A DNA stretch of 64,000 nt. It comes from Candidatus Omnitrophota bacterium (GTDB lineage Bacteria; Omnitrophota; Gorgyraeia; Zapsychrales; JBAZNR01). The notes beneath the pieces were generated by a model. That model was not told where the DNA came from, searched no databases, and was given only the letters and a program-made list of their open reading frames with translations. A program made the position numbers and the translations under genes. Each line of letters begins with the position of its first letter. Within the stretch, counting starts at the first letter, position 1. Where the stretch lies: the NCBI GenBank assembly GCA_041649175.1, contig JBAZNR010000003.1, forward strand, positions 143,449-207,448, read 5' to 3'. Below, in pieces: positions 7,289 to 58,445 of the stretch.

Positions 7289-7328
7289 TAAAGGCGCCCC
7301 GATATTTTGTCGGGGCGCCTTTGTTTTT
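7289..7328 (+). terminator. Rho-independent terminator after the porin gene
   Basis: aaaggcgccccga-tatttt-gtcggggcgccttt followed by GTTTTT. GC-rich 13-bp stem plus a U-tract. Confidence 0.85.
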
Positions 7329-7827: not shown

Positions 7828-8403
7828 ATGACCAAAGATGAGATTTATGAGCATTTAGCTCAAGTGTATCTCGGCAAGCAAAAGAAAATTGACAAGAAAA
7901 GAAAGCGCTCGTTAAAGCCGAAGGTATTAATTCAGGGAATTGTTTTAGTTATTCTTTTGGGCTCATCCTTTTACGGTCTTACCGCATTCTTTTCCAAAAA
8001 AAATACTTACACACCGACGAGCATCATCTTCGCGCTTAACAATAGCCCCATCCGCGTTAAGTATAATTTTAATCAGCCGTATCCGCAGCGAGAAGACTTT
8101 GCGCTTCCTATTCCAAAGATTGACGCCACCAAGTATAAAAAAATAAACTTTTCTATTCGCGGTACCGATGATGGTTTTCCGGGGATCGTTAAAGTCGTTT
8201 TGCGCAACCGCAAAAATGAAAATTCTTTTTATTTTGTCCAGAATGTCGGCCTCAAATGGCAGAAGCTTAGTATTCCCTTGGAAGAATTTAGCGCTATTAC
8301 GGACTGGACAAATTTACGCGATATCTCCTTTGTTTTAGAATCTTGGAATGTTGAGCGTAAACGAGGGGCCGTACTGATCGATGAGATTTGTTTTACGAAT
8401 TAA
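7828..8403 (+). CDS. Hypothetical membrane-anchored protein with a C-terminal beta-sandwich (CBM-like) region
   Basis: Basic N-terminus, a single TM helix (VLIQGIVLVILLGSSFYGLTAFF), then a beta-rich domain ending LIDEICF as in some carbohydrate-binding modules. Family not firmly recognised. Confidence 0.55.
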   Translation: MTKDEIYEHLAQVYLGKQKKIDKKRKRSLKPKVLIQGIVLVILLGSSFYGLTAFFSKKNTYTPTSIIFALNNSPIRVKYNFNQPYPQREDFALPIPKIDATKYKKINFSIRGTDDGFPGIVKVVLRNRKNENSFYFVQNVGLKWQKLSIPLEEFSAITDWTNLRDISFVLESWNVERKRGAVLIDEICFTN

Positions 8404-8423
8404 CGGTCTGACCCTAAGACCGT
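8403..8423 (+). terminator. Short hairpin (acggtct-gacccta-agaccgt) after the 7828 gene
   Basis: 7-bp stem with a weak T-tract. May attenuate rather than terminate. Confidence 0.35.
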
Positions 8424-8473
8424 TTATAAGATAAATTAAAAGCGAAAGACTTACTAAAAGGAGGATCAAGAAT

Positions 8474-9634
8474 ATGCGCGTCATATCCATAGCGAACCAA
8501 AAAGGTGGTTGCGGGAAGACGACAACGTCCATTAATCTGGCGGCGGCTTTAGCTGCTCAAGGAAAGAAGGTTCTCCTTTTAGATCTAGATCCTCAGTCGC
8601 ACGCGTCATTGGGATTAAATGTTGAGTCGCAAAATAGCATTTACAATGTCATCTCGCGCTTAACGCCGCATAAATTGGGCATTCAAGACATTATTATCAG
8701 TTTGCCTGACAGCTTTGATATTCTGCCGTCCAATGTTTTAGTCGGGACCCTGGAACAAGAATTGGCGGATGAGATCGGCCGTGAATTAAAGTTGGTGGAA
8801 GCCCTTTCACGCTTAGAAGGGCAGTATGACTATGTTCTTATTGATTGCCCTCCCAGCCTTGGGTTTTTAACGGTCAATGCTATTCGTGCCAGCCAAGAGA
8901 TCATTATTCCGGTTGAAACAAGCCGGTTTTCAATGCAAGGCGTTGAGCGGCTCATGGACATCGTCCATCTTATCAAAGATAGGCTAAATCACACGGTTGT
9001 TGCTAAAGTTTTAGTGACCATGTTCGATTCGCGTTTACGGCATTCGTTTCTCATGCTCGCTAAGATCAAAGAACGGTTTAACGCGATGATCTTTGATACG
9101 ATCATTCACGTGAACGTTAAGCTGAAGGAATCCATTGTTATGGGCCAAACCGTGGCAAGTTATGACAAATATTGCCGCGGGGCTAAAGATTATTCAAGCT
9201 TGGCCAGAGAGCTTTTGCGCGCCAACAATGAGGAGGAAGTGATCGCCTCCTCCATTGCTCGACGGGTAGCTATTGAAACAGATGCGCCCATGCAAAACTC
9301 GTCACGGATACAGCAGTTTATGGAAGAAAGCGCGGCAGAAAGCGCAACAGAAGCTGCTATAGAAAATATTTCAGCACCCGAAGCGGTCTTCTCGCTGGAT
9401 GCGCCGTTTGCCCGCTCAGTTTATGTTGTAGGCAGTTTTAATGAGTGGGGTATTGATGAATCGTTTCGCATGCAAAAAGAAAACGACAAGTGGATCTTAA
9501 AGGCCTCATTGAAACCGGGCCGTTATCGCTATCGTTTTATCGTCGATGGGAAATGGCAGGAAGATCCCGAAAATCCGCAAAACGAAAAAAATCCTTTTGG
9601 TGAGATCGACTCTTTAGTTGAGGTTGGACAATGA
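8474..9634 (+). CDS. ParA/Soj/MinD-family P-loop ATPase fused to a C-terminal CBM48/AMPK-beta glycogen-binding domain
   Basis: Deviant Walker A NQKGGCGKTTTSINLAAALA, then LLLDLDPQ and DYVLIDCPPSLG (ParA signatures). The C-terminal ~85 aa (SVYVVGSFNEWGIDESFRMQKENDKWILKASLKPGRYRYRFIVDGKWQEDPENP) matches the CBM48/AMPK1_CBM glycogen-binding pattern. RBS AAAGGAGGA. Confidence 0.85.
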   Translation: MRVISIANQKGGCGKTTTSINLAAALAAQGKKVLLLDLDPQSHASLGLNVESQNSIYNVISRLTPHKLGIQDIIISLPDSFDILPSNVLVGTLEQELADEIGRELKLVEALSRLEGQYDYVLIDCPPSLGFLTVNAIRASQEIIIPVETSRFSMQGVERLMDIVHLIKDRLNHTVVAKVLVTMFDSRLRHSFLMLAKIKERFNAMIFDTIIHVNVKLKESIVMGQTVASYDKYCRGAKDYSSLARELLRANNEEEVIASSIARRVAIETDAPMQNSSRIQQFMEESAAESATEAAIENISAPEAVFSLDAPFARSVYVVGSFNEWGIDESFRMQKENDKWILKASLKPGRYRYRFIVDGKWQEDPENPQNEKNPFGEIDSLVEVGQ

Positions 9635-9954
9635 CAGAAAATGCTCCGATCAACGAAAAAGAGATCTTAGATGGAAAAATATACGCCGTTTTATCCTATA
9701 TCTCGATTTTGTGCATTAGCCCGATCATATTTAAAAGAGAAAATGCATTTGCGTTATCACACGGAAAACAAGGCTTGATCATATTCGTCGGACAAGTTGC
9801 GGTTCTTATCTTGAGTATTGTTTTTCCCTGGGTTCTCCGTCCCGCGATGTTTTTGCTCTTCTCCTTGGCATTCTGGGGCATTATTGAGGCTTTGCGAGGG
9901 CATTATGTAAGATTGCCGCTCGTATCGGATATTGCGGATAAAATCACATTATAG
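9631..9954 (+). CDS. DUF4870-family small membrane protein
   Basis: GKIYAVLSYISILCISPIIFKRENAFALSHGKQGLII followed by two TM helices, as in DUF4870. ATGA-coupled to the ParA-CBM48 gene. Confidence 0.65.
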   Translation: MTENAPINEKEILDGKIYAVLSYISILCISPIIFKRENAFALSHGKQGLIIFVGQVAVLILSIVFPWVLRPAMFLLFSLAFWGIIEALRGHYVRLPLVSDIADKITL

Positions 9955-9991
9955 CCAGAAATTCTTGGCGTAATGTCTTTCAGAATATCTT

Positions 9992-10546
9992 ATGGCGCTA
10001 TTTCGTCGGATCCTGGAGTCACTCAAGAAAAAATTCCGTCTTTTACCCTCACGACGACGTTTAAAGCGCCGCTCTCCCGCCAAAAAAACAAAAAAACGAT
10101 CGGCTCGCCCCCCAAAGAGTTCTTTAAAACGGGTTTTAAAATCATCCAAGTCTAAAAAACGCATACGAAGACCTGTCGGGCCCAAAAAGGTAAAAACTTT
10201 TAAGGCCAAGGTTCGTTTTACTAAAAAGAAGCCTTCGAAGAAGCTTTTAAAAGGTCGTTCATTGAAGCCCAAAGAAAAGAGCTTAGCGCAAACTGAGGGC
10301 TTTTATGTAGGCGAAATAACGCATTTCTTCTCCAAAATAAAAGTTTGTGTTGTGAGGATCGATAACGGCTCAATTATCGTCGGAGATAAGTTGCGCATTG
10401 AGGGCGGTTCCGGCCATTTTATTCAAAAAGTAATTTCGCTTCAAATTGAGAATAAAGATGTTAAAATAGCAAACAAAGGCCAGTTGGTCGGCCTAAAGGT
10501 TAATAAGAAAACACGTCCCGGAAGCAAGGCCTATAAGATCTCTTAA
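9992..10546 (+). CDS. Protein with an extremely K/R-rich ~95-aa N-terminal tail and a C-terminal beta-barrel domain (translation-factor domain-II-like)
   Basis: The N-terminus is about 45% Lys/Arg (SRRRLKRRSPAKKTKKRSARPPK and similar). The C-terminal segment GEITHFFSKIKVCVVRIDNGSIIVGDKLRIEGG...VISLQIENKDVKIANKGQLVGLKV resembles an EF-Tu domain-2-type barrel. Confidence 0.5.
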   Translation: MALFRRILESLKKKFRLLPSRRRLKRRSPAKKTKKRSARPPKSSLKRVLKSSKSKKRIRRPVGPKKVKTFKAKVRFTKKKPSKKLLKGRSLKPKEKSLAQTEGFYVGEITHFFSKIKVCVVRIDNGSIIVGDKLRIEGGSGHFIQKVISLQIENKDVKIANKGQLVGLKVNKKTRPGSKAYKIS

Positions 10547-10556
10547 GAGGTGCCGT

Positions 10557-10736
10557 ATGAAAGACAAAGCTGGACAAAATACGTTTGAATATATTCTGCT
10601 ATTGGCGGCAGTTGTCGCTGTTTTTATTGTTTTTCTAAATCCTAGCGGGATATTTAGGGGGAAAGTGGAAAGAATTCTCAATACGATCCCCGATCAAGTT
10701 AATTCAATGGCGCGCAATATCCATTTTGAAGAATAA
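10557..10736 (+). CDS. Unannotated 59-aa ORF: Flp/Fap-type pilin-like protein (class III signal peptide)
   Basis: MKDKAGQNTFEYILLLAAVVAVFIVFL fits the Flp prepilin motif: G, then Q/A-x-x-x-E-Y, then a hydrophobic helix. RBS AGAGG 6 nt upstream. One codon below the 60-aa ORF-track cutoff. Confidence 0.5.
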   Translation: MKDKAGQNTFEYILLLAAVVAVFIVFLNPSGIFRGKVERILNTIPDQVNSMARNIHFEE

Positions 10737-10745
10737 TACATTTCT

Positions 10746-11156
10746 ATGGCTCTTTTAGATAAAAATGATAAGAAGCTGGTCAAACGCTATTTAGTATGGT
10801 GTTATAAAACGACTAAAGAAGAGCTTGACCGGGTTGATAGGAAGTTTACTCAGCTCAAAGTAGATGATTTTATTTTGCGTCAGCTGACGGATAAATCAGC
10901 GCAGTCGCAATACAAGAAGCTTCTTAATGATTTTCGTTTGTATATTGCCAAAAAACATGGGGAAGCGCAGGCTGATAAGTTTTCTGGCAATGGGAGTAAG
11001 GCTGTTCGATGCGAATATTTATTTCTAAAAAATCGTTTTGCGGCTATTGAAAAAGCGATCGCATTTTTCTTAGGGAAAAAAGAACTGAAAGTCATCGCCG
11101 CGCTTTACGAACAAGAAATGACGGCGCGTATTTTGCAGTCACGGGAACACACATAA
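10746..11156 (+). CDS. Hypothetical protein
   Basis: Clean 136-aa ORF in the operon context. No recognisable family. Confidence 0.45.
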   Translation: MALLDKNDKKLVKRYLVWCYKTTKEELDRVDRKFTQLKVDDFILRQLTDKSAQSQYKKLLNDFRLYIAKKHGEAQADKFSGNGSKAVRCEYLFLKNRFAAIEKAIAFFLGKKELKVIAALYEQEMTARILQSREHT

Positions 11157-11168
11157 TTCTTTTTAAAT

Positions 11169-12065
11169 ATGTCTAACTCTGAAATCATAAATCGCAAAGA
11201 CCCCTTAACCGGATTTCACACCAAAGACGGGCTTTTCGAATATCTTAACTCTAAGATCGTCTCTGTTTATGAAAAAGCCGGACGCCTGTCTGTTATTATT
11301 CTCGACATAGATAAATTTAAACACATCAATGATACCTATGGCCATCCCGTCGGAGATGATGCCTTGCGACATTTTTCCGCGATCATTAATAAAGCCTTAA
11401 GAGGCCAGCATTTTGTGGCGCGTTATGGCGGCGATGAGTTTGTTATTGTGATGCCGGACAATGCAGAGTGCAAAGAGAGCTTGGAAATTGCCGCGCGTAT
11501 TAAGTCGATGCTCAGCAAAGAGCAGTTTTATACAATCCGTGATCACATCAGGATGAACTCTTCCATTGGCATTGCGACTTATCCGACTGACGCGAAAACA
11601 GCCAAAGACTTGCTTTCTATGGCGGATGAGGCGCTCTATTATGCCAAGCGGCATGGCCGCAATAAGGTCATCATGTCAAAAAGCCTTCGCTCGCGCTCTA
11701 CTAAGGACACTATTTTCAAATTTATCGGATTTCTTGTTCTTGTCTTTTTTGGGGCTGTTGTCTTTTTCTCGTATGCCGGAACGGATTCTCTTAAGGGAGT
11801 TGCGGCCTATTGCCAGGATATTAAAAACTATACGGCCTATTTTACTTATGTAAAAACAAAGAACCGCAATTATTGTTTACTGGAATTAACCGATGGGAAA
11901 AAGATAGAAGGCTGGATCATTGAAGAAAGCGGGGGGTCTCTCGTTATTAGCTTAACGAAACCGGAACTCAACCTTAATCCGATGCGGAAAAATTTTACAG
12001 CGTTGATACAGACGATTAGAATCCCGAAATCAAATATCGTCTCATCAGTAAGAACAATGAAATAA
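11169..12065 (+). CDS. Diguanylate cyclase (GGDEF domain) with a C-terminal TM segment and a small extra domain
   Basis: Active-site RYGGDEF. GGDEF core motifs DPLTGFHTKDG and DIDKFKHINDTYGHPVGD. Hydrophobic helix FIGFLVLVFFGAVVFF after the catalytic domain. Confidence 0.85.
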   Translation: MSNSEIINRKDPLTGFHTKDGLFEYLNSKIVSVYEKAGRLSVIILDIDKFKHINDTYGHPVGDDALRHFSAIINKALRGQHFVARYGGDEFVIVMPDNAECKESLEIAARIKSMLSKEQFYTIRDHIRMNSSIGIATYPTDAKTAKDLLSMADEALYYAKRHGRNKVIMSKSLRSRSTKDTIFKFIGFLVLVFFGAVVFFSYAGTDSLKGVAAYCQDIKNYTAYFTYVKTKNRNYCLLELTDGKKIEGWIIEESGGSLVISLTKPELNLNPMRKNFTALIQTIRIPKSNIVSSVRTMK

Positions 12066-12437: not shown

Positions 12438-14153
12438 ATGATTCTTCAACAAAAACCACGGCTAATTGATGTCCTTCTCCTAGGATTCTTTACTATTCTC
12501 ATTACATTCCAGCCTTTTTATCTTCACGATGATATTATCATGATGGAATCAGGGATACATCTTCCGGTTATCAACGCTGTTTTTCATGGTTTGGTTCCTT
12601 ATCGGGATGTTTTCTTTTTGAGAGGTCCTTTAGAGCTGTATGTGCCGGCGCTAGGAATGCTGTTGTTTGGAAAAAACGCAGCAATTTTACCTACATTTTA
12701 TTATCTTGGGACAATTGCAACACTTTTGCTTTGGGTTTTTATGGCAGCGCAGATCTTCCGAACAAGACTTATTTTGTATCTGGCAATTCCTGTCCTTATT
12801 GCCAGGACATTCCCTCGAGTATCATTCAACTATTGGGGCGGAATGCGGTATGCCATGAGCCTTTTGCCGCTCTTACTCTTTATTATTTTCCTAAAGCGAA
12901 GAAGATTTCGATGGGTGTTTTTCAGCGGCGTTATTTCCGCTGCGGCTCTCCTGACAACCATTGAAGCTGGTTTTTGTGCCACTGTATCCGTCAGCTTCGC
13001 TTTTGTTTTTGCTCTAGTTTTTAAAATAGAAGATCGGCGTTTTCTTCTGAAAGGGATGGCAATTTATGGATTTGGCGTTTTGTGCCTGCTGTTTCCATCT
13101 GCAATTTATTTGATATGGACAAACTCGCTTGTTCCTTTCTTTGACTCAACCCATGCTGTCATCAGGAATCTCTACATTGCTTTTCCTGATGCTCCTGGTA
13201 ATCATCCTGAAAGCTTTGTGGAATTCTTGTCAGCGTTGTGGCCTGGCAGTCGATTCTTCAAGTTTATGACGCCGATTTATTGCTATCTTGTTTTTCTTGT
13301 GTTTTTTGTCTATGTGTTGCGTTTCAAAAAAATAAGCCAGGAACGAATCATTGCTCTTTTTAGCTTGATGGTTTATGGAAGTATCTTGTATATTTCTGCG
13401 TTTCGTAAAATTGAAGGACACCATTTTGAAATGGCGTTGCAGCCAGAAAAACTTTTGTTGTTTTTCATGCTAGAGGAAGTATTTCTATTCTTTAAGGAGA
13501 GAATTTCTTTGATTAAAGCGGCCAGTGCGCAACAAGGGCAGAAATCCAGATCTTGGAAAATCGTAGCAATGTATTGTTTTATTGCGTGTCTTATTCTGTC
13601 ATCGGTGATTTATTCAATCGAACGTTACAATAAGCGATTTGTCATGTCCAAGGTATTCGGCAGGCTGCTTGCGGGTAAGCCCATCTCTGACCTTTCTCCG
13701 CTAGCTGGAAGATCAAAGATGCTGGCGATTGATCGAGCCAAGGGGATGGTTGTCCCCAAGGAGCAAGCGGATGAAATAACAACCGTAGTTGATTTTATAT
13801 CCAGAAATACCAAATCAACAGATGTTGTTTTTACGCCTCCGGAGCTTGGTACATATAATTTTCTTTTTGATCGCCCTTTTGTTGGGCGCTTTGCGGTTGT
13901 AACGGCATCTTGGCTAAAAGAAGATTGGTGGCAAGAACTTATTAACGATTTTAAGGAAGTCAATCCGGAATATGCTGTGATGACCAATGTTGATGATGTA
14001 AGTTTCCCCTCGGAATGGTATTTTCGTAATCCGCGTAATATTGAGCGATATGAAGAACTGACCCAGCTGGTTTTGGGTCGTTATGATGTCGTAAAATCGT
14101 TGCCGTCCGTTTCGATTTATCGCCTAAAGCATTCGTATCGGTTGGCTGAATAA
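12438..14153 (+). CDS. Polytopic integral membrane protein, paralog A, with a C-terminal soluble domain
   Basis: About 9-11 predicted TM helices, then a ~200-aa hydrophilic domain. Shares long conserved blocks with the next gene (LPVINAVFHGLVPYRDVFFLRGPLELYVPA, FEMALQPEK, GMVVPKEQA, ELGTYNFLFDRPF). Confidence 0.65.
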   Translation: MILQQKPRLIDVLLLGFFTILITFQPFYLHDDIIMMESGIHLPVINAVFHGLVPYRDVFFLRGPLELYVPALGMLLFGKNAAILPTFYYLGTIATLLLWVFMAAQIFRTRLILYLAIPVLIARTFPRVSFNYWGGMRYAMSLLPLLLFIIFLKRRRFRWVFFSGVISAAALLTTIEAGFCATVSVSFAFVFALVFKIEDRRFLLKGMAIYGFGVLCLLFPSAIYLIWTNSLVPFFDSTHAVIRNLYIAFPDAPGNHPESFVEFLSALWPGSRFFKFMTPIYCYLVFLVFFVYVLRFKKISQERIIALFSLMVYGSILYISAFRKIEGHHFEMALQPEKLLLFFMLEEVFLFFKERISLIKAASAQQGQKSRSWKIVAMYCFIACLILSSVIYSIERYNKRFVMSKVFGRLLAGKPISDLSPLAGRSKMLAIDRAKGMVVPKEQADEITTVVDFISRNTKSTDVVFTPPELGTYNFLFDRPFVGRFAVVTASWLKEDWWQELINDFKEVNPEYAVMTNVDDVSFPSEWYFRNPRNIERYEELTQLVLGRYDVVKSLPSVSIYRLKHSYRLAE

Positions 14154-14162
14154 AGGAGTAAT

Positions 14163-15827
14163 GTGAACACCGAAAAAAGACTAGGATTTCTTGACGTTCT
14201 TTTGCTTTCTTTATTTATTGTGGTCATTACGTATTATCCGTATTATTTGCACGGAAAAATTAATATTTTTGAAATTGGACTATATTTGCCGGGAATTAAT
14301 GCCGTTTTGCACGGGCTGGTCCCTTATAGGGATTTCTTTCAATTGCGGGGTCCTTTGGAATTGTATGTTCCGGCGGCAATGATGTCCGTTCTTGGCGTGA
14401 ATATACCTGTCTTGTCAGTTTACTTTTATGTGGGAACGGTCTTAACTCTTATTATTGCCGTTTTGATCGCCAAAGAAATCTTTAAGACAAGATGTGTTCT
14501 TTATTTATTTGCCGCGGTTTTAGTCGCGCGGACGTTTCCCAGGGTGGTTTTTACCTATTGGGGAGGAATGCGTTATGCGCTTGGTTTATTAGCGGTTTTT
14601 TGTGTTGTGAAATTTTTCAAGCGAGAAAAACCGATTTGGATGTTTTTTGCAGGCATCGCGTCTATTTGCGGATTGTTGACGAGTGTTGAGATCGGCGTAT
14701 ATTCTGTTGCGGGAGTTCTTGCGGCGATCTCGGTTTCTTATGCCTTTCGCCTTCAAGACAAAAATATTATTTGGCGCGCCGGTTTATTTTATATTGCCGG
14801 CGCAGCGGTCATCATTGTGCCGTATGTTCTATATCTTGTCTTTACTAATTCTTTCATTCCTTTTGTGGATACGATTTATGCGGTTGTGATCAGGAAAGAA
14901 ACCATCATTAACCAGCATGCAATCTCTAATATTCCCAGTAATCTTTTTGAAGCATTAGCGGCCATGACCAATCCGTCAGCAAAGAATTTCCGGCATATGA
15001 CGCCGGCCTATCTTTATCTTTTGCTTGCCGGGTATTTGATCGTTGAAATGCGAAATAAAAAGCTTTCGCGAGAATCAGCGATGCTCGTTTGTATCGGGAT
15101 TTATGGTTTTGTTATGTACAATACGGCCTTTCGCGGTATTTGGGCGCAACAGTTTGAAATGGCGCTGCAGCCGGAAAAGATATTGTTTTTCTTTCTTTTA
15201 GAGCGGGCATATTTTTACTTGAAGGACAAGGAAATTAGAATTTCTAGAATTCAGGTAAGCGTAGCATTTCTAACTCTGATTGTTTTTTCATCCCTCGGTT
15301 ATTCGATCGCGAGATATAATCATCGTTTTTTTGCGTTTCAGTATGTTAGAAATCTTATTTCGGGAAAAGACACAAAATCGTTGGTTCCTTTGAAAGATGT
15401 TGCACTGCGGCCCATCCAGATTGAAAGGGCCAGGGGAATGGTTGTTCCGGTCGAGCAGGCACATGAGATGGAGTCGATCGTTAATTTTATCGACGAGAAA
15501 TCGAGCCGAGAAGATATCGTTTTTACGTATCCGGAATTGGGGACGTATAATTTTCTTTTTGACCGCCCGTTTTTAGGCAGGTTTCCTATCGCAACGTTTT
15601 CTTGGTTTAATGAGCGTTGGCATCGGGAACTGATCTCTGACCTTGAAACTATCAAGCCACGCTGGGTTATCTTTGGAAAAAAATACGATCCAAATTGGCA
15701 GGCTGTTTATTTAGGGCAAGAAGAAAACGTTAAGAAATATAATGACGTTGTGCGTATTATAGAAAATGATTATGTTTTAGTTAAGGAGATGCCTGAATCC
15801 GGCACCTATATTTATAAACATAAATAA
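14163..15827 (+). CDS. Polytopic integral membrane protein, paralog B (tandem duplicate of 12438..14153)
   Basis: Same architecture and the same conserved blocks (LPGINAVLHGLVPYRDFFQLRGPLELYVPA, FEMALQPEK, GMVVPVEQA, ELGTYNFLFDRPF). Confidence 0.65.
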   Translation: MNTEKRLGFLDVLLLSLFIVVITYYPYYLHGKINIFEIGLYLPGINAVLHGLVPYRDFFQLRGPLELYVPAAMMSVLGVNIPVLSVYFYVGTVLTLIIAVLIAKEIFKTRCVLYLFAAVLVARTFPRVVFTYWGGMRYALGLLAVFCVVKFFKREKPIWMFFAGIASICGLLTSVEIGVYSVAGVLAAISVSYAFRLQDKNIIWRAGLFYIAGAAVIIVPYVLYLVFTNSFIPFVDTIYAVVIRKETIINQHAISNIPSNLFEALAAMTNPSAKNFRHMTPAYLYLLLAGYLIVEMRNKKLSRESAMLVCIGIYGFVMYNTAFRGIWAQQFEMALQPEKILFFFLLERAYFYLKDKEIRISRIQVSVAFLTLIVFSSLGYSIARYNHRFFAFQYVRNLISGKDTKSLVPLKDVALRPIQIERARGMVVPVEQAHEMESIVNFIDEKSSREDIVFTYPELGTYNFLFDRPFLGRFPIATFSWFNERWHRELISDLETIKPRWVIFGKKYDPNWQAVYLGQEENVKKYNDVVRIIENDYVLVKEMPESGTYIYKHK

Positions 15828-16659: not shown

Positions 16660-19182
16660 ATGACATCCAAAAAGACACATCTTTGTATTCACGGACATTT
16701 CTATCAACCTCCCAGAGAAAATCCTTGGATCGAGGAAATTGAAGCTCAAGAAAATGTCGGCGGAATTTATCACGACTGGAATGAGCGTATTTCTTCTGAA
16801 TGCTACCATCCTAATGCGTTCGCGCGTGTTTTAGACGGTGAACAGCAAATCGAAAATATCGTTAATAATTATGAGTCTTTGAGCTTTAACTTTGGCCCAA
16901 CGCTTTTAAGCTGGATGGAAAAGTATGATCCGCGGACTTACGAGCGCATTATCGAAGCAGACCGTAAAAGCATCAAAGAACGCGGCGGCCATGGCAATGC
17001 CTTAGCGCAGGTTTACAATCATATTATTATGCCGCTGGCGAATCGGCGGGATAAAATAACGCAAGTGAAATGGGGTATTGCTGATTTTAAGAAACGTTTT
17101 GGTCGGACCCCCGAATCAATGTGGCTTGCGGAAACAGCTTGCAACGAAGAATCTTTGCAGGTCTTGATCGAAGAGGGAATGAAATTTCTTATTTTGGCGC
17201 CGCATCAAGCCGAGAAAATTAAGCGTTTTTCGGATGCCCATTGGAGCGATGTTTCCGGTGGTAACGTAGACCCAACGCATCCTTATCGATGTTTTTTAAA
17301 TGATAGTTCCGGTCGTTATATTGACATCTTTTTTTATGATGGCCCTGTTTCAAAATCAGTTGCCTTTGATGATCTCGTGAATGATGCCAGGATCTTTGCG
17401 CATCGCTTGGAAAATGCCCGGCGTCCGGACCGGCGCCATACCGAGCTCATCCACGTTGCCACCGACGGAGAAACATACGGGCATCATAAGATCTTCGGAG
17501 ATCGTGCCTTGGCGTATTTGTTGAAGACGGAAGCCGCAAAACACGGATTTGTGATCACCAATTACGGTGAGTTCTTGGAAAAGTTTCCACCGGAATATGA
17601 GGTTAAAATTAAATCCGGCGAAAATGGCCTAGGAACTTCCTGGAGCTGTGCGCATGGCGTGAAGCGCTGGAGTGATCATTGCGGTTGCCGGGGAGACGGC
17701 CCGGGGCATTGGCGGCAGGATTGGCGCAGGCCCTTACGCGAAACGTTCGATTGGCTTCGAGACGAGCTCGCTCTTATTTTCACGAAAGAGGGAAATAAGT
17801 ATTTTCACGATGCCTGGGAAGCGCGCAATGATTATATTAACGTGGTTTTGGACCGCAGCCATAAATCCAGGGAAGATTTCTTTCGTAAGCACGCGAAATA
17901 TATTTTATCCAAAGATGATGTGGTGATTTGCTACAAGCTTTTGGAAATGCAGCGCAGCGCAATGCTGATGTATACAAGCTGCGGATGGTTCTTTACGGAA
18001 GTTTCTGGGGAAGAAACGGTACAGGTGATCAAATATGCCGCGCGCGCTGTTCAGCTCGCCGAAAGTGTTATCAAGGCAGACTTAACGACAGAATTCAGCA
18101 GCCGTTTAAGAAAAATCAAAAGCAACATGGAATATTTTGGCGACGGAGAAGGCGTTTATGAGCATTTGGTTAAGCCTTCCATTGCTACCCTAGAGCGGGT
18201 GGTCAGCCATTTTGCGATCAGTTCCTTATTCAAGAATTACAATGATCAATTTACGATCTATGGTTATGAGTTTGAGAATTTGGATTATCGCAAGGAGAAC
18301 TTGGGGGATTTGACACTGTGCTTGGGGCGGGTTAAAGTTCGTTCCATTGTAACGTTTGAAGAAATCGATGTTGTTTATGTTCTTTTGCAATCTGAAATTT
18401 ATGATTTTTATTGTTACGTGCGGCCTTTTTCGGAAATTTCCGATTATTTAAAATTCGGCCATGAACTTTTTGGAGAATTTCTTTTAGGGCATCGTAATTC
18501 CATGGGAAAGATCATTTATGAGCGTTTTGGCACGGAATATTTTTCTCTGAAGGATCTCTTTAAAGAGGAGCGCAAGGAAATTCTGGCCTTGCTGTCTCGG
18601 GATGCCATTGAGCGGTTTAAACATTTGGCGGATGAACTTTTGCAAAAGCACCGCCGCATGATCGATGTCTATCGGATGACCAAAATCCCATTACCGGATG
18701 AATGCCGTTTTGTCGTCGAGCAAAAGCTTTCCGGGGATTTTAATGACCTGATTAATAAATCGATCCTATCTGATTCTGAGGTCTTTGATCGAGCGCATGC
18801 GATACGCGTTTTAGCTAAAGAATTGGGGTTAAAACTTAATCGTAGCCACGCAGAACAGTTTTTAACAAAGCAGCTTAACGAAACGATCGCTGGTTTGCGC
18901 ATTAAGTGGAATGATGGGAAGATCAAAGATTGTTTAAGTATGGTTAAAGTGGCTCAGCGCTTAGGCATTGAGGTTGATTTCCGTATGTCTCAAGAACATT
19001 ATTTAGCGATCGCGGAAAGGCTAGAGCATGATAAAACCTATGCGGCGACTGCCGGTGGCCAGAGTATTTTTGATTTTATTGATCTCGGCCGAAGGCTAGG
19101 GATCAACGTGGAAGCCATTAAATTAAACAGGGAAAGTCCTTTATTTAAGGCTGCGTTTTTTCCAAGCCAACCTGGCAATTAA
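16660..19182 (+). CDS. Glycoside hydrolase family 57 protein (alpha-glucan-active; amylase/branching/4-alpha-glucanotransferase type)
   Basis: N-terminal LCIHGHFYQPPRENPW and the GH57 catalytic region (WLAETACNEESL, HVATDGETYGHH). 840 aa with a long helical C-terminal extension. Confidence 0.8.
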   Translation: MTSKKTHLCIHGHFYQPPRENPWIEEIEAQENVGGIYHDWNERISSECYHPNAFARVLDGEQQIENIVNNYESLSFNFGPTLLSWMEKYDPRTYERIIEADRKSIKERGGHGNALAQVYNHIIMPLANRRDKITQVKWGIADFKKRFGRTPESMWLAETACNEESLQVLIEEGMKFLILAPHQAEKIKRFSDAHWSDVSGGNVDPTHPYRCFLNDSSGRYIDIFFYDGPVSKSVAFDDLVNDARIFAHRLENARRPDRRHTELIHVATDGETYGHHKIFGDRALAYLLKTEAAKHGFVITNYGEFLEKFPPEYEVKIKSGENGLGTSWSCAHGVKRWSDHCGCRGDGPGHWRQDWRRPLRETFDWLRDELALIFTKEGNKYFHDAWEARNDYINVVLDRSHKSREDFFRKHAKYILSKDDVVICYKLLEMQRSAMLMYTSCGWFFTEVSGEETVQVIKYAARAVQLAESVIKADLTTEFSSRLRKIKSNMEYFGDGEGVYEHLVKPSIATLERVVSHFAISSLFKNYNDQFTIYGYEFENLDYRKENLGDLTLCLGRVKVRSIVTFEEIDVVYVLLQSEIYDFYCYVRPFSEISDYLKFGHELFGEFLLGHRNSMGKIIYERFGTEYFSLKDLFKEERKEILALLSRDAIERFKHLADELLQKHRRMIDVYRMTKIPLPDECRFVVEQKLSGDFNDLINKSILSDSEVFDRAHAIRVLAKELGLKLNRSHAEQFLTKQLNETIAGLRIKWNDGKIKDCLSMVKVAQRLGIEVDFRMSQEHYLAIAERLEHDKTYAATAGGQSIFDFIDLGRRLGINVEAIKLNRESPLFKAAFFPSQPGN

Positions 19183-53663: not shown

Positions 53664-55691
53664 TTGAAAAAATCTTCCTCAAAAAAGCAATCATCTTATT
53701 CTTACCAGGATTTTGCCGGGCTTATCGATCGTTTTGACTCGGTTTATAAGTCGGACATCGATGAGCAGAAATATTTTGGATTTCCTCTGGACCCGATTTT
53801 GAAGATCGAAAATCAATTGTTAGGCGGCCAAGCTAAAACGATCGCTTATTTTTCAATGGAATTTGGTATTGCGCCGAGCATCTATAACTCGTTTGGTTTA
53901 AGCCGTCCGATGAGCGAAAAGAATAAATTCTTTAAGCATGAAGTTTTTTCGAATTACTGGCTTTCCGATTATGTGTTTAAGATCCAGATCGACAAGATGC
54001 TGGACATCCCTATCTACAGCGGAGGCTTAGGTGTTTTAGCCGGGGATTCCATGAAAAGCATTGCCGACCTGGGGCTTCCGGTGACCGGCATTGGTATTTT
54101 GTGGAATAAGGGATATTTCAAGCAAAATTTCTGGTATAAACACGGCCAAGTTCCTGAGGAGCTTACTTGGGATCCGCATACGTATCCGGGGCTTATTCCG
54201 CTCAAAAATATTGTTACCATTGAAACGAAGCAAGGGCCGCTCAACTTAAAGCTTTGGAAGTATTATGTCTATAGTTATGATAAGAAAAATGCTTGCCCCA
54301 TCATCCTTCTTGATTCAAATCTTCCTGAAAATAGCGAGCCGTTTCGAAAATTGACCGACCAGCTTTACCGAAGCGATGATATGTGGTGGAAGATCTTCCA
54401 ACGGGCCATTCTTGGTATTGGCGGCGTTAAGGCCTTAGATAGCTTAGGCTACAACATTGGAACTTATCATTTGAATGAAGGGCACGCGGCGTTCGCTATT
54501 ATCGAAAAATATCTTTCTTTAGATGATAAAAGCGAAATGAAGGATTTGATGAAGCATTTTGTCTACACCTGTCATACGCCGGTGGTGGCAGGGCATGACC
54601 GTTTTAAGGTGAGCGAATTGCGCAATATTTTTGACGAGAGATATGTTCGGGCGGCGGAAGAATTTGGAAAAGAAAACGCGCAGTCTCCGGAAATAAATCT
54701 TACCTTTATGGCGCTTAATCATTGCAACAAGGTTAATGCCGTCGCCAAAAAACACGGCGAAGTTATGCGTATTCAATTCCCGGATTTTGCCAAGAAAGTG
54801 CAATCCATCACCAACGGTGTTCATACGCATACATGGGTTTCGGAAAGTTTCGCCAAGCTCTTTGATAAATACGAAAAGATCCTCGGCGACTGGCGGGCAG
54901 ACCCCACGTTACTTTCGCGTATCACTGCTTTAGCAGAAAGTAAAGCATTCCGGCGAGATTTGTTTGAAGCTCATCAGGAAAATAAGCGTAATCTTATCAA
55001 TGTGGTTAAACATTGGCAGCTGAAGGAAGATATTTTTACGCTTTCTTGGGCAAGGAGAATTGCCGGTTATAAAAGACCCGCGCTTATTTTTCATGATACC
55101 CAAAGGCTTGTTGATATCGCCAGGCGCGTTGGGCCGATGCAGATCATCCTGGCCGGTAAGGCTCATCCAAATGATAATTTGGGCGCGGCGCATATTGAAG
55201 ATATCTTAGACCATATTGACGCGTTGAATGATTATAGCGATGTTGTCAAAGTGCTTATTTTGGAAAATTACGATACGTATTTTGGGAAATTACTGAGCAA
55301 TTCGGTTGATGTTTGGTTAAATAATCCTCTGCCGCCTTTTGAGGCTTCCGGAACTAGCGGTATGAAAGCTATTTTAAATGGTGTTTTGCAAATGAGCACA
55401 GTTGATGGATGGGTTGTTGAAGCTGTTTCGGATGATATTGGATGGCTTTTTGGCTATCGTCATAAAGGGTCGGATATCGGCAACGAGAACGATTTGCGCC
55501 TAGATGAGGACTCTAAGGCTCTTTGTGACACATTAGAGGAAGCCGTCGGGCTATATTATAAAACATGTAAAAGCGGTAAAATTGTTACGGAAAGCCCATG
55601 GATCGATAAGATGATCCACTGTATTGAAAAAAGCGGGTTTTTTAATACGCAACGCATGATCGGGCAATATAAGTCTCAGATGTGGGAATAG
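53664..55691 (+). CDS. Alpha-glucan (glycogen/maltodextrin) phosphorylase, GT35 family
   Basis: YFSMEFGI, YSGGLGVLAGD, HLNEGHAAF, TCHTPVVAGHD, EASGTSGMK (the PLP-lysine region). Confidence 0.85.
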   Translation: MKKSSSKKQSSYSYQDFAGLIDRFDSVYKSDIDEQKYFGFPLDPILKIENQLLGGQAKTIAYFSMEFGIAPSIYNSFGLSRPMSEKNKFFKHEVFSNYWLSDYVFKIQIDKMLDIPIYSGGLGVLAGDSMKSIADLGLPVTGIGILWNKGYFKQNFWYKHGQVPEELTWDPHTYPGLIPLKNIVTIETKQGPLNLKLWKYYVYSYDKKNACPIILLDSNLPENSEPFRKLTDQLYRSDDMWWKIFQRAILGIGGVKALDSLGYNIGTYHLNEGHAAFAIIEKYLSLDDKSEMKDLMKHFVYTCHTPVVAGHDRFKVSELRNIFDERYVRAAEEFGKENAQSPEINLTFMALNHCNKVNAVAKKHGEVMRIQFPDFAKKVQSITNGVHTHTWVSESFAKLFDKYEKILGDWRADPTLLSRITALAESKAFRRDLFEAHQENKRNLINVVKHWQLKEDIFTLSWARRIAGYKRPALIFHDTQRLVDIARRVGPMQIILAGKAHPNDNLGAAHIEDILDHIDALNDYSDVVKVLILENYDTYFGKLLSNSVDVWLNNPLPPFEASGTSGMKAILNGVLQMSTVDGWVVEAVSDDIGWLFGYRHKGSDIGNENDLRLDEDSKALCDTLEEAVGLYYKTCKSGKIVTESPWIDKMIHCIEKSGFFNTQRMIGQYKSQMWE

Positions 55692-57275: not shown

Positions 57276-58445
57276 ATGACTGACAGAAAAAGAGTCTTGG
57301 TTGTTGATGATGAGCGCAATGTAGCCGAGATGATGTCCATGATGCTTGAAACCCGCGGCTATGAGGTCAACATTGCCGGTTCCGGGCAAGAGGCTATGGA
57401 GAAGGCCAGCACGAAGCCTGATCTCATTTTGCTTGATCTCATCCTTCCTGATATTGAAGGTTTTGAAGTTTGTCGCAGGCTCCGCGAAGAAAAATCAACC
57501 CGCAATATCCCCATCATTATGATCAGCGTCAAATACCTATTCGAAGATAAAATCGAAGGGCTTTATTTGGGAGCTGATGATTACCTGACAAAACCGTTTG
57601 ATCACGAAGAGCTCTTTGCCCGCATTGAAGCTGTTTTAAGGCGGGCTCTTATTTTTGATGAAGGATCGGATTATCGTGACTCGGTGATCTTCGAAGCAAA
57701 AAAGATCATCAAGGAGGGCTTGATCACGCCGTTCTACCAGCCGATATTTTTCCTACAGCCATTTCAGCTTTTTGGGTTTGAAGCCCTGAGCCGCCCCCCG
57801 AGCAAAAGTGTTTTAGCAAATCCCGAATTACTTTTTAAAGTAGCCCTGCGTTTTGGTTTGTATTGCGATTTAGAGTTGCTTTCCTGGAGAAAAGCTATTG
57901 AATCCCGGCCGGAAAGCGTTGCGGGGAAGAAGCTATTTTTGAACTGCAATCCCTATCTCGTTGAAAGCCCGAAATTCTTTAAGATCAAATCAATTTTTGA
58001 AGAGAACAATATTTCCGCCAAAGACACGGTTTTGGAAATCACAGAACGTTCTGCCATCCATGATTTTGATTCATTTTATGAACGCCTGCGTTTTTATCGT
58101 GATTATGGATTTAGCATTGCCATTGATGACGTTGGTTGCGGGTTTGCCAGCTTGGAATCTATTGTCCAAACAAAGCCTAATATCCTAAAGATCGACAGGC
58201 GTTTGGTGGAGAATTTGGATCAAGATGCTATCAAAAGAAGCTTGATCAAATTCGTTGTTTCTTTTTGCAAGGAGAACAATATCATTTCACTGGCGGAAGG
58301 AATTGAACGTAAATCCGACCTTGATGTTTTGATTGATCTGGGAGTTGATGCCGGGCAAGGGTATTTGCTTTGCCGCCCCATGCCGGAGATCAATATCAAT
58401 GAAATTTATAAAGATATTTATGTCCGCCTAGGGTTGTCTGTATAA
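57276..58445 (+). CDS. Response-regulator receiver fused to an EAL-domain c-di-GMP phosphodiesterase
   Basis: REC: VLVVDDE...DLILLDLILPD...DDYLTKPF. EAL: FYQPIF...FEALSRP, EITER, DDVGCG, QGYL. Confidence 0.85.
   Translation: MTDRKRVLVVDDERNVAEMMSMMLETRGYEVNIAGSGQEAMEKASTKPDLILLDLILPDIEGFEVCRRLREEKSTRNIPIIMISVKYLFEDKIEGLYLGADDYLTKPFDHEELFARIEAVLRRALIFDEGSDYRDSVIFEAKKIIKEGLITPFYQPIFFLQPFQLFGFEALSRPPSKSVLANPELLFKVALRFGLYCDLELLSWRKAIESRPESVAGKKLFLNCNPYLVESPKFFKIKSIFEENNISAKDTVLEITERSAIHDFDSFYERLRFYRDYGFSIAIDDVGCGFASLESIVQTKPNILKIDRRLVENLDQDAIKRSLIKFVVSFCKENNIISLAEGIERKSDLDVLIDLGVDAGQGYLLCRPMPEININEIYKDIYVRLGLSV

Follow-up and report, generated by a model that had tools for sequence, protein, structure and literature searches.

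What does a ParA-type ATPase do when its own C-terminus carries a glycogen-binding module? This question is raised by one gene in a 64,000-nucleotide stretch of a Candidatus Omnitrophota genome (GenBank assembly GCA_041649175.1, contig JBAZNR010000003.1, positions 143,449 to 207,448 of the forward strand), which is called the window below. Among the structures that ParA/MinD ATPases organise are chromosomes, plasmids, carboxysomes, chemoreceptor arrays, flagella and division sites. No carbon store is more widespread in bacteria than glycogen, and to our knowledge next to nothing is understood of how bacteria place its granules, keep them separate and divide them between daughter cells. An initial annotation of the window had described the gene product as a ParA/MinD-type ATPase fused to a carbohydrate-binding module (CBM) of family CBM48, and had supposed it to be an orphan ParA whose cargo is a glycogen or alpha-glucan granule. 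Here we describe the fusion protein, the family to which it belongs and the genes that accompany it, and we propose that it could act as an ATP-switched tether that organises cytoplasmic glycogen, a proposal that we regard as evenly balanced between right and wrong.

A ParA/Soj-type ATPase joined to an AMPK-type CBM48 module

The fusion gene is an open reading frame (ORF) at 8474..9634 on the forward strand that opens with ATG and encodes 386 residues (Table 1). Its N-terminal part matches Pfam AAA_31 over residues 1-174 (E 5e-56, 189.9 bits; cut-off 27) and CbiA over residues 4-226 (E 3.5e-22, 79.1 bits; cut-off 25.4). Its C-terminal part matches PF16561 AMPK1_CBM over residues 314-385, with 55.3 bits within the whole protein and 58.8 bits for its last 100 residues alone (cut-off 26.8), as well as PF02922 CBM_48, with 22.8 bits in the full protein and 26.1 bits for the isolated 100 residues (cut-off 22.4). 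Because the C-terminal segment scores above both gathering cut-offs, the fusion claimed in the initial annotation is confirmed, and the deviant Walker A motif KGGCGKTT on which that claim also leaned is present as K10GGCGK15TT (8501-8524).

The two lysines of this motif are invariant in an alignment of 129 family members, as are D37 and D39 of Walker A' and D124 of Walker B. The Walker A cysteine, found in 122 of the 129, is replaced by valine in two solved ParA/Soj proteins, and position 212 is His, Arg or Asn in the family where ParA/Soj proteins have proline. By sequence, the closest solved structure is Myxococcus xanthus (Mx) ParA, 8RAY (residues 2-250 aligned, E 1.5e-48), followed by the Soj proteins of T. 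thermophilus and H. pylori. Foldseek searches with the predicted structure likewise return 8ray (E ~2e-15) and 1wcv (E ~3e-14), with template modelling scores of 0.75-0.77 normalised to the target; the top 50 matches of the full-length model are all ATPase matches, and the assessment of the CBM rests on sequence.

In M. xanthus ParA, an arginine, R238, binds DNA, and six hydrophobic residues form the pocket that receives the N-terminal peptide of ParB (PMC12462528). The fusion protein has K216 at the position of Mx R238 (Bs R189), where 100 of the 129 members have Lys or Arg, and a second basic residue at K218, a position that is Lys or Arg in 108. Five of the six pocket residues are still hydrophobic (L129, F131, V134, L166, L171). 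An ATP switch with a pocket for a partner peptide and a basic surface is thus plausible for this domain.

The C-terminal module is predicted with high confidence, with 10-residue block means of ~87-97 for the predicted local distance difference test (pLDDT) over residues 301-386. Its matches among PDB sequences are the N-terminal domain of the neopullulanase 4aef (E 2.9e-8), which we take to be the CBM48 of that enzyme, the CBMs of AMPK beta1 and beta2 (5e-8), SEX4 and the N-domains of GlgB. Five residues presumably contact sugar in AMPK beta1, namely W100, K126, W133, L146 and N150, and the putative equivalents W325, R354, W361, F375 and D379 are of the AMPK-beta type and largely kept across the family (Table 1). 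In Pfam family (PF16561/PF02922) and in these positions, two Trp, Lys/Arg, Leu/Phe and Asn/Asp, the module resembles those of AMPK beta, SEX4 and GH13 enzymes, which sit on a kinase scaffold, a phosphatase and a glycoside hydrolase, whereas this one sits on a P-loop positioning ATPase. The fusion protein has no signal peptide and its ATPase is cytoplasmic, which makes cytoplasmic glycogen or maltodextrin the obvious likely ligand of the module. The flexible, low-confidence linker between the two halves contains a short helix with an S-x-R-[MI]-Q motif that is kept within Omnitrophota, and its length ranges from ~5 to ~350 residues across the family.

We compared the ATPase with the known branches of its superfamily. 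It shares with ParA/Soj (8RAY, 1WCV, 6IUB) the fold, the deviant Walker A motif with its signature lysine, the mostly kept activator-peptide pocket and a basic residue at the DNA-binding position, at 35-37% identity in the Foldseek alignments. It differs in the added linker and CBM48, in its lack of a ParB/parS partner, in the Walker A residue noted above (Cys for Val) and in a stretch H-V-N-V-K-L-K-E-S that takes the place of PRNVRLSEAP. The NCBIfam model NF041546 ParA_partition gives 117.2 bits, under its cut-off of 180.

Three other assignments were rejected. MinD fails at 58.3 bits for minD_bact against a cut-off of 212.9, and the C-terminus is a CBM48 rather than an amphipathic membrane-targeting helix. 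BcsQ fails at 69.9 bits for TIGR03371 against 157.85, with no cellulose synthase genes in the window; the likeness to BcsQ lies in a ParA/MinD fold tied to a polysaccharide and to membrane proteins and in a Pfam CBP_BcsQ match, whereas the polysaccharide implied here by the CBM and the neighbouring genes is a cytoplasmic alpha-glucan. McdA structures are matched at E ~1e-14, much weaker than Soj at E ~1e-48, and no neighbour belongs to a recognised McdB family in the Pfam scan, whose searched models included none for McdB; the likeness to McdA is one of mode of action only.

A large family spread over several phyla

An NCBI entry from a Candidatus Omnitrophota metagenome-assembled genome (MAG), named only 'AAA family ATPase', has exactly the sequence of the fusion protein, and PF16561 is present in every one of more than 120 full-length relatives (54-66% identity). 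From a search of 1.84 billion cluster representatives (50% identity), we took the best 150 and scored them with our own hidden Markov models for both halves. The ATPase was followed by a C-terminal CBM in 135 of them and stood by itself in 11, some of which are fragments; the remaining four are repeat proteins with several CBMs. With a profile made from 40 diverse members, we retrieved at least 7997 proteins at E < 1e-30. Omnitrophota, Schekmanbacteria, 'PVC group', Desulfobacterales, Nitrospirota and Leptospirillia appear among the source names, and no functional name goes beyond 'AAA family ATPase', 'chromosome partitioning protein' or 'hypothetical protein'. With 135 of the best 150 representatives fused and none but generic names attached, the architecture is no lone curiosity, and we conclude that ParA-CBM48 is a large, uncharacterised and distinct family across several phyla.

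In the literature searched, which has most subscription journals outside its coverage, we found no account of a ParA-CBM48 fusion or of a ParA system for glycogen, in agreement with the statement in the initial annotation that no such positioning system had been described. The component families and the architecture are already visible in public databases; it is their combination, the operon partners and the glycogen context that are undescribed.

Giant proteins with 6-18 tandem AMPK-type CBMs and no ATPase (P0121, of 1812 residues, P0158, P0194 and P0253) also rank among the best matches to the fusion query, and they may be multivalent scaffolds for glycogen or alpha-glucan.

The fusion gene is separate from chromosomal ParABS

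No ParB domain was found in any window ORF of at least 150 residues, and no GERRxRA ParB box in any frame of the window. As a control we used unfused Soj-type loci from the same metagenome scan that had 1.2 kb or more of sequence downstream, and we examined fused loci from that scan together with loci from GTDB species genomes. The latter genomes were scanned with a CBM pattern derived from 8 sequences, which gave 570 confirmed stretches; the best 80 loci, ranked by similarity to the query CBM, were analysed and are nearly all from Omnitrophota, so that the taxonomic breadth of the family is taken from record names. The ATPase is fused to the CBM in 78 of these 80 loci, and contig ends truncate the remaining two. 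An ORF with a ParB box was present in 26 of the 40 unfused controls and in none of the 19 fused metagenome loci or the 80 genome loci. The absence of parB reported for the window extends to the fused loci examined. We rejected assignment to canonical ParABS, since ParB is never adjacent to the fusion and is usual in the control loci, and since the ParA_partition cut-off is missed.

Neighbours with a ParB-like peptide are likely activators

ParB proteins contact ParA through a motif of the form LGRGLxxL (PMC12462528). In the loci from outside Omnitrophota, the gene directly downstream of the fusion, which is often translationally coupled to it, encodes a protein that starts with KKLG[KR]G[LI]E[DE]IS..FLS, the first half of which is this ParA-binding motif. 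The peptide reads LG[RK]G[LI]E[DE]I in the partner families that we call f12, f3 and f17. The remainders of these proteins are unrelated to one another and comprise ~300-residue degenerate MinD-like proteins (minD_arch, 27 bits) and proteins of ~180 and ~230 residues. Neighbours with such an N-terminal peptide are likely activator partners of the ATPase, and we infer that the peptide binds and activates it. A ParB-like peptide on unrelated scaffolds illustrates modular evolution of ParA activators.

In Omnitrophota the candidate is a different protein, the membrane protein p191, which is encoded directly upstream of the fusion gene in the window and by a homologue at that place in 73 of the 80 loci. 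It has no Pfam match. Its N-terminal helix (residues 3-14, MTKDEIYEHLAQVYLG; 7828-7875) belongs to a peptide that is nearly invariant over 70 species, with the consensus MDKK[ED]IYEHLA[KN]IYLDAS, and the second half of this peptide aligns with EDISYLFLSA. A regular expression for this motif matched 80 of the 1857 ORFs in all retrieved loci, each of the 80 directly adjacent to a family gene. The N-terminal helix of p191 is followed by a Lys-rich disordered stretch and a transmembrane helix (residues 31-58; 7918-8001); beyond this lies a confidently modelled, CBM11-like beta-sandwich (residues 65-191; 8020-8400). The p191 model has a pLDDT of 82.8. The best PDB folds for the sandwich are CBM11, CBM8, CBM30 and CBM28, with a weaker likeness to modules of BcsB and AlgX. 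Because 11 Lys or Arg residues precede the transmembrane helix, the positive-inside rule predicts that the N-terminal helix is probably cytoplasmic and the sandwich periplasmic. Here p191 is the probable partner of the ATPase and a candidate for its activator or anchor. The description of the fusion protein as an orphan ParA holds in that ParB is no neighbour; it does not hold for the conserved operon, in which neighbours with a conserved N-terminal peptide, plainly ParB-like in other phyla, are probable partners. Similarly, the picture of a cargo carried on the nucleoid, offered at the outset, did not predict a likely membrane partner with an extracytoplasmic CBM11-like domain.

The downstream protein p184 was considered as a general activator and rejected. 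Its N-terminus FRRILESL fits the ParB pattern in the window and is kept in only ~3 of 71 orthologues.

Two observations concern the partners themselves. The ~300-residue partners (L090:8107-9030, L091:8153-9070, L005:2057-3010, L004:10094-10927) look like ParA/MinD folds without the former Walker A motif, and they carry an N-terminal ParB-like peptide; they would thus be pseudo-ATPases that activate a real ParA. In L109, and probably in L113, which is cut short by the end of its contig, the ATPase has no C-terminal CBM and is still followed by an f12 partner (L109:8001-8882 and L109:8903-9844), which in L109 bears the ParB-like peptide KRLGKGIEDISHLFLS; the ATPase-partner pair can therefore exist without the CBM.

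Alpha-glucan genes adjoin the family in several lineages

Both alpha-glucan enzymes that the initial annotation placed in the window, a GH57 protein and a glucan phosphorylase, are there (Table 1). The GH57 protein has no PDB match and only a far sub-threshold NCBIfam match. At 7 kb and 44 kb from the fusion gene, the two are weak context on their own.

The wider family gives a different picture. By clustering all ORFs of the 80 loci, we found a gene for a 519-residue GH57 protein (PF03065, 211 bits; closest solved relative the amylopullulanase 8ZYI, E ~1e-83) that lies between a porin gene and p191 on the same strand in 52 of the 80, and in 41 of the 54 with enough upstream sequence. This protein would be cytoplasmic and without a signal peptide, because its sequence opens directly with the catalytic motif. 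Outside Omnitrophota, the Desulfobacterales locus L089 has on one strand ParA-CBM and, after it, a partner, a PilZ protein, a 1471-residue debranching enzyme, a free CBM48 protein and GlgP. In the PVC-group MAGs L090 and L091, ParA-CBM is followed by two partners, a DUF4912 protein and a GH57 branching enzyme, and in L006 GlgC lies 3.6 kb from the fusion gene. In at least three lineages, then, alpha-glucan enzymes are encoded directly beside a family gene. In addition, Omnitrophota MAGs have been reported to encode glycogen synthesis (PMC8542988).

Gene order and surrounding genes

The genes from p191 through ParA-CBM48 and p107 to p184 (7828-10546) appear to form one operon, because terminator-like hairpins follow both the porin and the p184 gene and the start of p107 overlaps the stop codon of the fusion gene. 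The overlap (ATGA) suggests that p107 is translationally coupled to the fusion gene, and the hairpin after the porin gene is the predicted upstream boundary of the operon. Among the 80 loci, p107 has a downstream homologue in 43 and p184 in 70, and an Alginate_exp porin lies further upstream in 40. The p184 protein scores 27.2 bits with Pfam GTP_EFTU_D2, below the threshold of 30.3, and has a homologue in the distant locus L007 (L007:8111-8536; blastp 5e-19). Searches of PDB and NCBIfam returned nothing usable for p184, for the f3 partner or for p136, a 136-residue protein encoded downstream of the operon.

Table 1. Features of the fusion gene, its CBM48 module and the surrounding window. Conservation of module positions refers to 135 family members.
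Feature	Coordinates	Strand	Remarks
RBS (ribosome-binding site) of fusion gene, AAAGGAGGA	8458..8466	+	8 nt upstream of ATG
ParA/Soj-type ATPase domain, residues 1-255	8474..9238	+	Pfam, PDB sequence search, family alignment, Foldseek
Acidic low-confidence linker, residues 256-302 (~47 aa)	9239..9379	+	predicted structure
AMPK-beta/CBM48 module, residues 303-386, and stop codon	9380..9634	+	Pfam, PDB sequence search, model, alignment
CBM48 position 325 (AMPK beta1 W100)			W in 135/135
CBM48 position 354, R354 (AMPK beta1 K126)			K/R in 129/135
CBM48 position 361, W361 (AMPK beta1 W133)			W in 131/135
CBM48 position 375, F375 (AMPK beta1 L146)			F/Y/L in 105/135
CBM48 position 379, D379 (AMPK beta1 N150)			N/D in 123/135
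Strong intrinsic-terminator-like hairpin, 16-bp stem and T run	7289..7323	+	after Alginate_exp porin gene
p191, 191-aa membrane protein	7828..8403	+	directly upstream of fusion gene
p107, small membrane protein	9631..9954	+	relatives match PF09685 (MamF_MmsF)
p184	9992..10546	+	Lys/Arg-rich disordered N-terminal half, C-terminal EF-Tu domain 2-like beta-barrel
Terminator-like hairpin after p184	10603..10620	+	probable operon end
GH57 + DUF3536 alpha-glucan-active enzyme	16660..19182	+	7 kb downstream of fusion gene
Alpha-glucan phosphorylase	53664..55691	+	TIGR02094, 416 bits vs cut-off 191.7; 44 kb from fusion gene

Several neighbouring genes are recorded here as observations. The p136 gene (window 10746-11156; L002:12234-12635) belongs to no family and is kept in only 3 of the 80 GTDB loci (tblastn) and in L002/L003; at its position, 35 loci, most of the other Omnitrophota, have a DUF134 DNA-binding protein. 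Genes related to cyclic di-GMP (c-di-GMP) also occur, namely a GGDEF gene just past the operon (11169-12065), a receiver-EAL gene further along the window (57276-58445) and the PilZ gene inside the Desulfobacterales glycogen cluster (L089:2964-3332), and they may hint at second-messenger control. Two adjacent genes (12438-14153 and 14163-15827) encode proteins of 571 and 554 residues with no Pfam match, and L010, the closest relative, has this pair conserved in the same place. Between 23470 and 53523, a block of ~30 kb consists mostly of genes for surface polysaccharides or glycan modification, with a DegT aminotransferase, glycosyltransferases of families GT2 and GT1, an AsnB-like amidotransferase, radical SAM proteins, YfhO/PMT-like membrane proteins, methyltransferases, acetyltransferases and two ORFs of 722 and 847 residues with no Pfam match. 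Finally, L010, L012, L016 and other loci come from records titled 'uncultured Planctomycetales/Planctomycetia', one from a 'Margulisiibacteriota' and one from a 'Woesearchaeota' record; their gene order is of the Omnitrophota type, and the titles are probably labelling or binning artefacts.

A proposed tether for glycogen and its rivals

We propose the following mechanism. Bound to ATP, the ATPase would dimerise, and the conserved Lys/Arg pair at positions 216 and 218 would attach the dimer to a surface, of which the nucleoid is the likeliest. The dimer would display two CBM48 modules on flexible tethers and hold cytoplasmic glycogen particles, or the enzymes that act on them. The short N-terminal helix of the partner, which is probably p191 here and elsewhere a soluble protein with the LG[RK]GLE[DE]IS..FLS peptide, would enter the hydrophobic pocket on the dimer's edge and bring about ATP hydrolysis and release, as ParB does with ParA. 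Cycles of binding and release could distribute granules, anchor them or hand them over, which would leave them dispersed within the cell and passed on to both daughters when it divides. In acting as an orphan ParA-family ATPase on non-DNA cytoplasmic cargo, with its gene beside cargo-related genes and that of a small partner protein, such a system would resemble McdA/McdB, PpfA/ParC, PomZ, MipZ and FlhG. In those systems a separate adaptor both binds the cargo and activates the ATPase, whereas here the presumed cargo module is on the ATPase itself and the activator is another protein. A polysaccharide granule as cargo would be without a described precedent in the ParA/MinD family.

Several points weigh against the tether. 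The canonical DNA-binding arginine is a lysine in the fusion protein, with DNA binding deduced from one or two basic residues, and the pocket residue equivalent to Mx V116 is a glutamine (Q95). The p191 motif corresponds to no more than the latter half of the ParB-like peptide. The window has no GH57 gene at the adjacent position, its nearest alpha-glucan enzyme being 7 kb off, and gene order kept within a single phylum may be a matter of common descent and not of common function. A cargo domain on the ATPase makes a tether, not a classical ratchet with the activator on the cargo. Lastly, the Omnitrophota partner is membrane-anchored with a periplasmic CBM-like domain and often has a porin gene near, which hints at an envelope-related role and keeps envelope-related readings alive for this phylum. 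The recurrence of alpha-glucan genes in differing gene orders across phyla is the stronger argument for a link to glycogen, and the soluble partners and glycogen enzymes of other phyla favour a role with cytoplasmic glycogen as what the lineages share. The suggestion in the initial annotation that the cargo is a glycogen or alpha-glucan granule gains from these glycogen enzymes beside family genes; its other part, that granules are positioned, stays at the level of a proposal.

The envelope could be central if the ATPase were a BcsQ-like organiser that localised or energised an envelope-polysaccharide complex made of p191, p107 and the porin, with the CBM48 binding a secreted glucan or a protein. 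Such a complex would accommodate the CBP_BcsQ match (51.6 bits), the two membrane proteins of the operon, the porin upstream in half of the 80 loci, the resemblance of the p191 outer domain to CBMs and more weakly to BcsB and AlgX modules, and the Wza/Wzz-type genes downstream in some loci. We consider it quite improbable, as the CBP_BcsQ match is far weaker than that of AAA_31 and the NCBIfam score is under its cut-off, no bcs or alg synthase genes are near, and in the window a strong terminator stands between the porin gene and the operon. Members in other phyla, moreover, are without the porin and the membrane partner and keep the cytoplasmic glycogen enzymes, the adjacent 519-residue GH57 protein is predicted to have no signal peptide, and the alpha-glucan-binding residues of the CBM are kept. 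It is very improbable that the fusion protein is an ordinary chromosomal ParA (Soj) with an accessory C-terminal domain and with ParB/parS elsewhere. Its best sequence and structure matches are indeed chromosomal ParA/Soj, the ParB-peptide pocket is largely kept and some databases use the name 'chromosome partitioning protein', but ParB is never adjacent in the window or in the fused loci while most controls have it, the ParA_partition score falls short, signature residues are distinct (the Walker A cysteine, and His, Arg or Asn for proline at 212), and the family has its own neighbouring partners that bear the activating peptide.

Glycogen could also be sensed rather than carried. The CBM48 of AMPK beta signals how much glycogen is present and does not serve as a cargo carrier, and in a glycogen-status sensor the CBM48 of the fusion would do the same, with glycogen binding sequestering or releasing a ParA-like switch whose output, through the partners, would be, for instance, cell division, an envelope function of p191 or c-di-GMP-linked behaviour. 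AMPK beta CBMs are among the closest sequence relatives of the module, the window's partner sits in the membrane with its CBM-like domain facing outward, the operon has diguanylate cyclase or PilZ genes close by in the window and in L089, and ParA/MinD ATPases are often regulators, as are MinD, FlhG and MipZ. We think a sensor unlikely: the fusion protein has no kinase or other output domain, the neighbours most often kept across phyla are alpha-glucan enzymes and not division or signalling genes, and a dimer with two tethered CBMs suits multivalent attachment to particles.

Significance

We suggest tentatively, and slightly on the doubting side, that the family would be the first ParA/MinD system for a storage polysaccharide, in which a tether with a built-in CBM48 is reset by activators that present ParB-like peptides on unrelated scaffolds. 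If this is true, storage polysaccharides would join the list of ParA/MinD cargoes, and the family would represent a new design in which the ATPase itself bears the cargo-binding module. The large, multi-phylum family offers simple tests of the 85-residue domain and of the partner peptides. In Omnitrophota, the outer CBM-like domain of the transmembrane scaffold could then couple events at the envelope to the internal carbon store.

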